This document shows, piece by piece, positions 36,661-38,356 of a DNA stretch of 64,000 bases. The stretch comes from a phage: the sequence record PZ452591.1. One strand, 5' to 3'. The translations under genes and the position numbers were made by a program. The notes under the pieces are model-generated. The model saw only the letters and a list, made by a program, of their open reading frames with translations, ran no database searches and was not told the origin of the DNA. Within the stretch, counting starts at the first letter, position 1; each line of letters starts with the position of its first letter.

Positions 36661-36688
36661 CAAAAAGCCCCAACCTTTCGGCCAGGGC
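36661..36688 (-). terminator. rho-independent terminator ending the tRNA/stable-RNA transcription unit
   Basis: minus strand GCCCUGGCC-GAAA-GGUUGGGGC hairpin followed by UUUUUGG. Confidence 0.6.
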
Positions 36689-36689
36689 T

Positions 36690-37005
36690 AAGCCTTGCGG
36701 CAACCTTGTCGGGGTTCCACCTGCTAAGGCAAGTGTTTGTACGAAACGCCGGGACTTGAACCCGGTTATTAAGTAGTTGACGCTACTCAATATTTTTAAA
36801 AGGCCATATCTCGACCATATCCGAACGTTCCGTCAAAAACGCTACTCGGCTTACGGCAAAGATATTTCCTCGAATCGATAATTCGGCGCGCCGTTTCTGC
36901 TGTGATATAAGGGGACATTAACAAAACATAAAGATTTATTAATGCCAGTCCTTAAACAGGGAACATCAGTCCGACGACTTGCCGGTAGCGACCCGGCTTC
37001 TTGTC
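36690..37005 (-). ncRNA. probable small stable RNA(s) (T4 rnaC/rnaD-like region); boundaries not resolved
   Basis: no ORF; tRNA T-arm-like CCGGG-UUCAAGU-CCCGG at 36749-36765; lies between tRNA-Arg and the operon terminator. Confidence 0.35.
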
Positions 37006-37082
37006 TGGTCGAGACAGAAGGATTCTAACCTTCAACCTACGGATTAGAAGTCCGTTGCTCTATACAATTGAGCTATGCCCCG
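37006..37082 (-). tRNA. tRNA-Arg (anticodon UCU), CCA encoded
   Basis: cloverleaf by hand; anticodon arm ACGGA-CUUCUAA-UCCGU; acceptor needs two G-U pairs and D-loop lacks GG. Confidence 0.55.
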
Positions 37083-37085
37083 TAA

Positions 37086-37751
37086 TTAAAATTTCATTTT
37101 TCGACCTTTAAACCATCCTTCTGGAATTGGGTCAGTTTTCTTAATACGTTTAGAAACTTTTTCATCTAATGAATGAATCCACATCATACCAAATTGGGAA
37201 TTCTTTTCGCCCTGTTGGTGTTTATTTCTGGCGTGAGATTCTTTCATTTTATTAATAGTTTCAGGAGTATGATGCTTATTTAAAAATCTGCTATTATTTA
37301 AAAATTTTTCCCTGTATTCAGGAGTTGACCACAAGCGTTTAAATACATTTGAACCATGTTTACGATATTTTTCTTGAAGTAAAATATCATTTTTAAAACG
37401 TGACTTAAACGATTTAGCTCCTTTTAAACTAGCGTCTTTCTTCTGGTTTAGCATCCCAGGAATATTTATATGGTCCCATCCACCTTCACCTCCAAGTTTT
37501 AAATTATACACATCTGGTCTATTTAAAAACTCTTCTGTGACAATATTTTTCTCGGCTTCAAGCATAGATTCTTTATCATCAAAATACTCTAATATTTCTT
37601 TAGAAAAATTTTCTATACCATATTTATCTTGGGCTCTTTTTAATAATTTACCAGAACCCATATATCCATCATCTAAATTTTCGGTAGAATGCACACCAAT
37701 ATAAATTTTATTATTAATTTTATTTGTTATTTTATAAGTGTAATGGAACAT
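37086..37751 (-). CDS. segB: GIY-YIG homing endonuclease (SegB-like) within the tRNA cluster
   Basis: 221 aa; N-terminal YKITNKINNKIYIGVHS GIY-YIG motif; sits between tRNA-Ile and tRNA-Arg. Confidence 0.8.
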   Translation of the reverse strand: MFHYTYKITNKINNKIYIGVHSTENLDDGYMGSGKLLKRAQDKYGIENFSKEILEYFDDKESMLEAEKNIVTEEFLNRPDVYNLKLGGEGGWDHINIPGMLNQKKDASLKGAKSFKSRFKNDILLQEKYRKHGSNVFKRLWSTPEYREKFLNNSRFLNKHHTPETINKMKESHARNKHQQGEKNSQFGMMWIHSLDEKVSKRIKKTDPIPEGWFKGRKMKF

Positions 37752-37792
37752 AAATATCTCCTATTTCTAAGAGTATTTATGTTCCCAAAATA

Positions 37793-37864
37793 TGGCCCTG
37801 GGTGGAATTGAACCACCATCTGGCGATTATGAGTCGCTTGCTTGAACCTTCCAGCTACAGGGCC
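37793..37864 (-). tRNA. tRNA-Ile (anticodon CAU, lysidine-type), no encoded CCA
   Basis: acceptor GGCCCUG/CAGGGCC perfectly paired; anticodon loop ACUCAUAAU. Confidence 0.8.
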
Positions 37865-37865
37865 T

Positions 37866-37938
37866 TGGTGCTGATTGACGGAATCGAACCGCCGACGTCC
37901 TCATTACAAGTGAGGTGCTCTACCTACTGAGCTAAATC
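37866..37938 (-). tRNA. tRNA-Thr (anticodon UGU), CCA encoded
   Basis: acceptor GCUGAUU/AAUCAGC; anticodon loop CUUGUAA. Confidence 0.8.
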
Positions 37939-37940
37939 AG

Positions 37941-38033
37941 CAACGGAGGCGATAGGATTTGAACCTATGAGTCGCCGGAGCGACTGCCGGTTTTCAAGAC
38001 CGGTGCATTAAACCACTCTGCCACGCCTCCAGT
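37941..38033 (-). tRNA. tRNA-Ser (anticodon UGA), long variable arm
   Basis: acceptor GGAGGCG/CGCCUCC; anticodon loop CUUGAAA; class II extra arm. Confidence 0.8.
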
Positions 38034-38035
38034 CT

Positions 38036-38109
38036 CCGTGGCAGGATTTGAACCTACGACATTCTGCTCCCAAAGCAGACGCTCTACCAAACTGAGCTAC
38101 ACGGAGTAA
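38036..38109 (-). tRNA. tRNA-Pro (anticodon UGG)
   Basis: acceptor CUCCGUG/CACGGAG; anticodon loop UUUGGGA. Confidence 0.8.
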
Positions 38110-38119
38110 ATTAAATTGG

Positions 38120-38193
38120 AGCGGATAATGAGAATCGAACTCACATCATCAGATTGGAAGTCTGAGGTAATGCCATTATACGATATCCGCAAA
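38120..38193 (-). tRNA. tRNA-Gly (anticodon UCC), CCA encoded
   Basis: acceptor GCGGAUA/UAUCCGC; anticodon loop CUUCCAA. Confidence 0.8.
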
Positions 38194-38198
38194 TTTGG

Positions 38199-38282
38199 TG
38201 CGAGAAGTGGGACTCGAACCCACAAGGAAATCATTCCGCAGCATTTTAAGTGCTGTGCCTTTACCAATTTGACCATTCTCGC
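38199..38282 (-). tRNA. tRNA-Leu (anticodon UAA), CCA encoded, long variable arm
   Basis: acceptor GCGAGAA/UUCUCGC; anticodon loop CUUAAAA. Confidence 0.8.
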
Positions 38283-38283
38283 G

Positions 38284-38356
38284 CTGGGAATAAAGGACTC
38301 GAACCTTTGCATCCTGGAATCAAAATCCAGTGCCTTACCAACTTGGCTAATTCCCA
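38284..38356 (-). tRNA. tRNA-Gln (anticodon UUG)
   Basis: acceptor UGGGAAU/AUUCCCA; anticodon loop UUUUGAU. Confidence 0.8.

Follow-up and report, generated by a model that had tools for sequence, protein, structure and literature searches.

The phage sequence record PZ452591.1, of which we analysed a stretch of 64,000 nucleotides (hereafter the window), carries between positions 36661 and 38356 eight transfer RNA (tRNA) genes split by segB, a homing endonuclease gene. Taking the operon and the homing of segB as one explanation, we conclude with high confidence that a Tequatrovirus, a T4-like phage, has its tRNA operon here, in the allelic form of RB32 and EC128. The locus itself is already known: it belongs to textbook T4 biology, it is annotated in near-identical genomes, and the T4 tRNA region has served as a model of tRNA processing since the 1970s. 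An earlier note on this DNA had described eight tRNA genes in a given order, split by a GIY-YIG open reading frame (ORF), and ARAGORN, Rfam RF00005 and Pfam PF01541 all bear this out; the coordinates of the note were also right, but it did not say that all the features lie on the minus strand. The gene content of the region, its homology, its RNA folds, the absence of a SegB site and the polymorphism of the locus in phage populations were observed directly.

The 2.3 kb around the cluster are collinear with T4 (AF158101, positions 70908-72530) and 93% identical to it, and they reach 97-98% identity with EC128 (ON210139), RB32 (DQ904452) and RB33 (KM607001). The T4 record gives the same order as the window, namely seven tRNA genes, segB, tRNA-Arg, rnaD (species 2 RNA) and rnaC (species 1 RNA), and the two sequences are alike in strand, anticodon set, spacing, upstream promoter region, the hairpin at the segB ribosome-binding site (RBS), stable RNAs and terminator. 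The RB33 record annotates the identical order, rnaD and rnaC included, whereas the EC128 record lists the homing endonuclease and all eight tRNAs, but neither rnaD nor rnaC. In RB32, RB33 and EC128 rnaC is separated from e.8 by one or two further ORFs, and RB33 has an additional ORF upstream of tRNA-Gln; the window, like T4, has none of these. The best 25-kb match to the window in the phage collection is 96% identical and the window itself is not in this collection, so that it represents a further Tequatrovirus isolate.

The gene that splits the cluster is a free-standing GIY-YIG homing endonuclease gene of 221 codons (37086-37751, minus strand), called segB-like in the earlier note. Its product matches PF01541 with 28.5 bits, for a cut-off of 22.6 bits, and is identical to T4 SegB at 214 of 221 amino acids (97%) with no gaps, six of the seven changes being scored as positives by BLASTP. 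By its full-length identity to T4 SegB and its position between tRNA-Ile and tRNA-Arg, as in T4, the ORF is identified at the sequence level as the SegB orthologue. The catalytic Y17 and G19 are present in a Y17-I18-G19 motif, these two being the residues mutated to inactivate the SegB of T6 (PMC13096335), and the C-terminal half gives a weak NUMOD3 match. The gap of 41 nt ahead of the gene folds into a hairpin (37745-37785, minus strand) that buries the Shine-Dalgarno sequence and the AUG, with a minimum free energy (MFE) of -21.4 kcal/mol and z = -6.1, a fold energy reached by none of 200 shuffled sequences; its T4 counterpart was proposed at 71912-71952, with a dG of about 20 kcal (PMC2330249). 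At the other end, tRNA-Arg begins 3 nt past the segB stop codon, so that, following the reasoning made for T4, RNase P processing should cut the segB message at its 3' end (PMC2330249).

SegB target site and probable gene conversion

The SegB site is 27 bp long, with a core GGTTCRANTCC corresponding to the tRNA T-arm and cleavage preferably after CCAR; T2L carries the best such site, in its tRNA-Asn gene, and in T4 x T2L crosses the SegB of T4 ensures nearly 100% inheritance of its own region (PMC2330249). We reconstructed the preferred site from the fetched T2 tRNA-Asn, whose 27-mer GGTTCGAATCCTATCACGTCCGCCAAA reproduces the five positions published as separating Asn from Ser. This site has no match in the 64-kb window at up to 3 mismatches, and the closest sequence, in tRNA-Ser, differs from it at 8 of 27 positions. 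Shfl2, RB68 and T2, which do not have segB, have tRNA-Tyr and tRNA-Asn at the exact position that segB occupies in the window, and the 27-bp site was found in the tRNA-Asn of T2 and Shfl2, that is, in empty alleles. The segB-carrying genome is therefore devoid of its own best target, which is the logic of a homing element. The earlier note had proposed to compare the presence of segB among relatives: full-length segB (at least 80% coverage) occurs in 131 phage records, versus 476 with tRNA subcluster I, figures that are only approximate since RefSeq/GenBank duplicates and laboratory T4 variants are counted and diverged segB genes are missed by megablast. There is thus a presence/absence polymorphism at a fixed site, with the target in the empty allele and not in the segB genome. 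The segB-less T2/T2L, Shfl2 and RB51/RB68 have in common with the window the tRNA-Ile(CAU) allele, rnaC and rnaD.

The junctions of the insertion can be placed closely. On the left, the CAU tRNA has lost its encoded CCA, the window and T4 reading ...A-TATTTTGGGAAC where Shfl2, RB68, T6 and T2 read ...GGGCC-A-CCA; on the right, the break falls within about 5 nt of position 1 of tRNA-Arg. In the scenario we propose, when the phage shares a host with a relative bearing tRNA-Tyr and tRNA-Asn at the segB position, SegB would cut the co-infecting genome there, recognising the T-arm end of tRNA genes (GGTTCRANTCC, then CCAR), and repair from the segB+ genome would transfer segB, with the tRNA alleles beside it, to the recipient. 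The phage would be protected from its own enzyme in two ways, by the absence of the preferred tRNA-Asn site and by the RBS hairpin, which would keep SegB synthesis low.

Several points weigh against this scenario. The exact SegB core is present in the 64 kb only in six tRNA genes and in rnaC, the other two tRNA genes having 2 mismatches (Gly) and 1 (Arg); secondary SegB sites, i.e., the T-arm motif followed by CCAR, are nonetheless kept by the phage itself in Leu, Thr and Arg, and Gly holds its 2-mismatch motif together with CCAA, so that self-protection would depend on low SegB expression. The record counts behind the polymorphism are approximate. For this phage, moreover, transcription, processing, cleavage and homing are carried over from experiments on T4 and T6, and its tRNA-Ile and tRNA-Arg alleles differ from those studied biochemically in T4, their amino-acid identity being deduced from sequence.

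The comparison with T4, feature by feature, reveals a mosaic. The Leu and Ser genes are 100% identical to those of T4, Thr about 99%, Gly 98.6%, rnaC 97.8% and segB 96.8%, but Gln only 89%, Pro 85%, rnaD 83.5%, Ile 63.5% and Arg 44.7%, the coordinates of rnaD and rnaC having been transferred from the T4 annotation by alignment. The earlier note had stated that the anticodons are the T4 set, which is right for the anticodons; the tRNA bodies are not all those of T4. The allele mosaicism is sharp at both edges of the segB ORF. Relative to T4, the Gln gene, 100% identical to that of EC128, differs in its anticodon stem and at positions 32/38 of the loop, and the Pro gene in its anticodon, T and acceptor stems, where the changes are paired; the divergent alleles keep every stem by such paired changes.

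The Ile and Arg alleles of the window are identical in RB32, RB33 and EC128, and segB is 99.7-99.8% identical to that of EC128 and RB33. RB33 combines these Ile and Arg alleles with the Gln and Pro alleles of T4, whereas EC128, which shares the Gln and Pro alleles too, is identical to the window everywhere but in Thr and rnaD. The ends of rnaD are conserved and its central hairpin is variable: in the window the centre is of the RB68/T6 type though the flanks are EC128-like, and the rnaD of RB32, RB33 and EC128, with another centre, is 86.7-88.3% identical. These allele patterns among the window, RB33, EC128 and RB68/T6 call for several recombination breakpoints within 1.7 kb. That the cluster is a site of active gene conversion, as the earlier note held, is supported because near-identical segB sits between quite different tRNA alleles; the T4 x T2L crosses (PMC2330249), the segB polymorphism, the mosaic edges and the absence of the preferred target point the same way.

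Related endonuclease genes were encountered in other phages. In about 60 records (SG1, fPS-2, BF15, Killian and others), a second clade of full-length segB, with 80-90% nucleotide identity, occupies the same position. Phages of the RB68/RB51/KIT03 type have a second endonuclease gene between tRNA-Gly and tRNA-Ser, in the place of tRNA-Pro (positions 2751-3359 of the fetched RB68 sequence, L005, compared with 37463-37737 of the window). Residues 6-96 of its product are identical to the SegB of the window and the DNA of its first ~96 codons shows 98-100% identity to segB, while its C-terminus, with NUMOD3 and weak helix-turn-helix matches, is unrelated to SegB; this comparison indicates a domain swap with a different insertion site, in which the catalytic domain has clearly been reused.

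The eight tRNA genes and the tRNA-Arg allele

ARAGORN run on the whole 64 kb finds exactly eight tRNA genes, all on the minus strand and all inside 36661-38356, and RF00005, whose gathering score is 29, matches all eight at 59.3-73.5 bits (E-values 1e-11 to 3e-15); both programs thus accept the cloverleafs that the earlier note had folded by hand, including tRNA-Arg. In the order of transcription, these are tRNA-Gln (UUG; 38283-38356, 67.4 bits), tRNA-Leu (UAA; 38196-38282, 59.3 bits), tRNA-Gly (UCC; 38117-38190, 63.3 bits), tRNA-Pro (UGG; 38032-38106, 69.7 bits), tRNA-Ser with its long variable arm (UGA; 37943-38031, 62.6 bits), tRNA-Thr (UGU; 37866-37941, 73.5 bits), a CAU tRNA of predicted Ile2 type (37793-37864, 59.9 bits) and, beyond segB, tRNA-Arg (UCU) of the RB32/RB69-type allele (37006-37082, 69.2 bits). 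CCA is encoded in Leu, Gly, Thr and Arg, and in none of the other four, Gln, Pro, Ser and the CAU tRNA. The spacers among the first seven genes, given as 1-10 nt in the earlier note, measure 1, 5, 10, 2, 2 and 1 nt, with boundaries homologous to the T4 annotation.

The CAU tRNA, which the earlier note had assigned to Ile, is labelled 'Met' by ARAGORN. We read it as Ile because its nearest genes in E. coli are tRNA-Ile with the same acceptor and anticodon arm: in 5,423 of 5,426 E. coli genomes the best match is annotated tRNA-Ile (PGAP), and the example that we fetched, a prophage-borne CAU tRNA, has in common with it the GGCCCT/AGGGCC acceptor and the GCGA-CUCAUAA-UCGC anticodon arm. The determinants for TilS are the acceptor pairs C4-G69 and C5-G68 plus an ileX-like anticodon arm. 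The CAU tRNA has the sequence features of Ile2 (a GGCCCTG/CAGGGCC acceptor with the same arm), and it is reasonable to predict that it is of the Ile2 type, modified with lysidine and reading AUA; the assignment of the earlier note is in this way supported, as a prediction from homology. The 'tRNA-Met' of Shfl2, RB68 and T2 is the same allele, but with CCA encoded.

The codons read by the eight tRNAs (CAA, UUA, GGA, CCA, UCA, ACA, AUA and AGA) all end in A. In a count over 14,486 codons from 50 long window ORFs (34.9% GC), the NNA codons of these tRNAs account for 18-72% of their synonymous families: CAA 72%, UUA 41%, GGA 40%, CCA 36%, ACA 32%, UCA 30%, AGA 27% and AUA 18%. These codons are minor in E. 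coli, and the pattern fits the classical view of phage tRNAs as codon supplements. The statement of the earlier note, that phage tRNAs support translation and may buffer against defences aimed at host tRNAs, is a reasonable summary of current views, given the frequency of A-ending codons in the ORFs and the T6 results with Septu (PMC13096335).

The allele of tRNA-Arg deserves separate treatment. It is 100% identical in EC128 and RB33 and its cloverleaf is the MFE fold. Its elbow is non-canonical, with a T-loop UUAGAAU (A56) and a D-loop AAUUGUAUA devoid of GG (U19), so that the tertiary pair 19-56 has apparently covaried, from the usual G19-C56 to U19-A56. The T-loop region, GGTTAGAATCC, has one mismatch to the SegB core, and we considered whether this might shield the gene from SegB. 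The tRNA-Arg of T2 was cut by SegB in the 2008 study (PMC2330249), but it is a third, different allele (GGTTCGATCCC), and the published T2 data are therefore silent on the allele of the window. The window-type allele is also found in Shfl2 and RB68, but with an A3-U70 pair. In the window, as in RB32, RB33 and EC128, the acceptor stem contains G3·U70 and G5·U68 besides G2-C71, G4-C69 and A73; G3·U70 with G2-C71, G4-C69 and A73 makes up the set of identity elements that alanyl-tRNA synthetase reads in the acceptor stem.

Searched by megablast with exact 30-mers, the phage collection yields 48 records with G3 and 135 with A3 (A3-U70); a pattern scan of IMG/VR gave 3 contigs, too few for allele statistics. 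Among the 48 G3 records, 46 show the segB-stop/G3 junction exactly, the other two being the two vB_EcoM_112 entries, where a homing endonuclease is annotated beside tRNA-Arg; in all 48, therefore, tRNA-Arg lies downstream of a segB-type gene. The same 30-mer search found a tRNA-Asn/G3 junction in no record of the collection, versus a tRNA-Asn/A3 junction in 20. In the reverse direction, G3 was rejected as a strict marker of segB, since PP01, SHFML-11, EP01 and F13076 combine segB with A3. From its distribution, G3 looks like a marker hitchhiking with the 3' junction of segB, and it appears to have spread because of its location, 6 nt from the stop codon of segB, where it undergoes conversion together with the homing endonuclease gene. 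One may ask if this segB-linked G3·U70 tRNA-Arg is partly charged with alanine, which would place Ala at AGA codons. The tRNA keeps A20, C35 and U36, the determinants for arginine, and we judge such mischarging improbable; if it did occur, a tRNA allele that may mistranslate would be spreading in the phage population, driven by a selfish element. A literature search for G3:U70 in phage tRNA-Arg returned nothing relevant.

Predicted transcript, stable RNAs and terminator

Upstream of tRNA-Gln, a middle-promoter-like element (38426-38453, minus strand), read from the sequence and near-identical to T4 in the alignment, consists of a MotA-box-like ATATGCTTTA at 38453-38444, a 12-nt spacer and a -10 TATTAT at 38431-38426, a combination which we take, from the consensus, to be that of a T4 middle promoter. 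A sigma-70 scan did not flag this element, as expected since a MotA-dependent promoter lacks the -35 element. For T4, a tRNA/segB transcript of ~1.75 kb is reported to start from a middle promoter immediately upstream of the cluster and to end after the species I RNA (PMC2330249). By homology, a MotA-dependent middle promoter at ~38426-38453 would start a single minus-strand transcript of ~1.75 kb, comprising the seven tRNAs, the segB message, tRNA-Arg, rnaD and rnaC and ending at the hairpin and T-run 36689-36661; as the T4 literature suggests, host RNase P, 3' exonucleases and the CCA-adding enzyme would then release the tRNAs and the two stable RNAs.

Both stable RNA homologues, rnaD (36885-37004) and rnaC (36740-36878), lie on the minus strand. 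The fold of rnaD is weakly supported (z = -2.1, with compensatory changes in 6 of 37 pairs), and its 3' end, ...GCACCA in T4, reads ...GC(G/A)CCG in the window and most relatives. The rnaC homologue has an MFE of -50.2 kcal/mol (z = -4.5) and a tRNA-like four-way fold made of a stem that resembles the acceptor and contains two U·U mismatches, a long arm, a hairpin of 10 bp with a conserved CGUCAA loop, and a T-arm which is an exact match to GGTTCRANTCC; six sequences drawn from Tequatrovirus, Karamvirus, Kanagawavirus and Tegunavirus give a consensus fold in which compensatory changes affect 16 of 47 pairs. In several genera of Tevenvirinae, rnaC is always within or beside tRNA arrays, and homologues were located in fetched relatives at L010 1500-1648, L012 1501-1648 and L011 1501-1621. 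Many GenBank records overlay rnaC with a 'hypothetical protein', and Enterobacter phage PG7 has it as a 95-nt 'tRNA-Met'. The Rfam scan of the window gave no family for rnaC or rnaD; weak matches to YrlA, sX4 and plastid UTR families all fell on tRNA genes, below their gathering scores, and were discarded as tRNA cross-matches. The function of rnaC is still reported as unknown (PMC3014915, PMC12685909).

The transcript region closes with a 3' trailer and intrinsic terminator (36661-36739, minus strand). The hairpin, 36689-36666, with a 10-bp stem (6 G-C) and a GAAA loop, is followed by TTTTT at 36665-36661 in the terminator scan, a structure which is by sequence that of an intrinsic terminator; the earlier note had announced a strong terminator here and its start, 36661, is the last T of the run. 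It had also called the stable-RNA region after tRNA-Arg ORF-free, which holds for ORFs of at least 46 amino acids, but not below this size, since TTG-started ORFs of 45, 42 and 34 amino acids overlap the region. Between the terminator and the e.8 homologue lies a sigma-70-like promoter (36499-36527, minus strand; TTTACA, 17 nt, TACTAT, extended TG), which presumably restarts transcription of the downstream e.8-e.5 genes.

Alternative readings and related systems

Other explanations have to be weighed against a homing element in a tRNA operon. SegB could be mainly a domesticated tool, which nicks tRNA genes and promotes tandem amplification of tRNA and anti-defence genes under tRNA-cleaving immunity; this role, compatible with homing, is possible, though we do not favour it as the main one. 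In T6, SegB's nuclease activity is needed to amplify a tRNA-Tyr/segB unit of 718 bp that overcomes Septu, which cleaves tRNAs, SegB also acts in trans against OLD and ToxIN, and its homologues are enriched beside tRNA genes in 296 phage genomes (PMC13096335); the secondary SegB sites which the window phage retains in its own tRNA genes would suit such a tool. Yet the segB/tRNA unit of the window is single-copy, with no tandem repeat, tRNA-Tyr, the gene amplified against Septu in T6, is absent from it, and the presence/absence polymorphism combined with the absence of the preferred target is the classic signature of homing. A related proposal, that the tRNAs serve mainly as spares against host defences which cleave or deplete tRNAs rather than as codon supplements, can draw on the phage tRNA-Tyr that counters Septu in T6 (PMC13096335) and on the Gln and Pro alleles, whose differences from T4 in stems and loop could reflect escape from a nuclease. 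We find it doubtful, although the two roles are compatible, for the eight NNA-reading anticodons match codons abundant in the phage ORFs, as codon supplementation predicts, and no known target of these defences, such as tRNA-Lys or tRNA-Tyr, is among the eight.

Homing endonuclease genes often degenerate once fixed, and the seven amino-acid differences from T4 SegB might suggest a decaying, inactive remnant; with a 221-codon ORF intact, Y17 and G19 in place, six of the seven changes to similar residues, the regulatory hairpin conserved and the ORF 99.7-99.8% identical to those of EC128 and RB33, this is very improbable. The chance that the cloverleafs are fortuitous or belong to pseudo-tRNAs is negligible: only the unusual T-loop and D-loop of tRNA-Arg speak for it, against Rfam scores of 59-73 bits for a threshold of 29, divergent alleles in which all stems are kept by paired changes, and an Arg elbow that covaries.

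With segB as a homing element retained as our preferred reading, the locus adds little beyond what is known of SegB homing (2008) and of the tRNA amplification that SegB drives to counter host defence (2026). The window is a clean example of a homing endonuclease gene at a recombination boundary, near-identical segB being flanked by very different tRNA alleles, and it leaves two loose ends, the G3·U70 tRNA-Arg allele travelling with segB and the role of rnaC, a conserved tRNA-like RNA.

Among known systems, T6 is an instructive comparison. Its segB has 96% identity across 98% of the gene and lies directly upstream of tRNA-Arg, as in the window, from which it differs in the first ~14 nt of the gene and in the upstream flank; unlike the window, T6 keeps tRNA-Tyr upstream of segB, does not have Pro and Ser, and carries T4-type Ile and Arg alleles. 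ARAGORN finds 6 tRNA genes in T6 where 7 are annotated; the one it does not call, the annotated tRNA-Thr (3387-3461 of the fetched T6 sequence, L004), may be a degenerate copy. In a wider circle, I-TevI and other GIY-YIG homing endonucleases resemble SegB by an N-terminal GIY-YIG domain and a C-terminal part that binds DNA and contains a NUMOD3-like motif, and they share with it translational repression through an RBS hairpin (PMC2330249). Unlike I-TevI, SegB is free-standing and not intron-encoded, and it targets with relaxed specificity a generic motif, the T-arm of tRNA genes.

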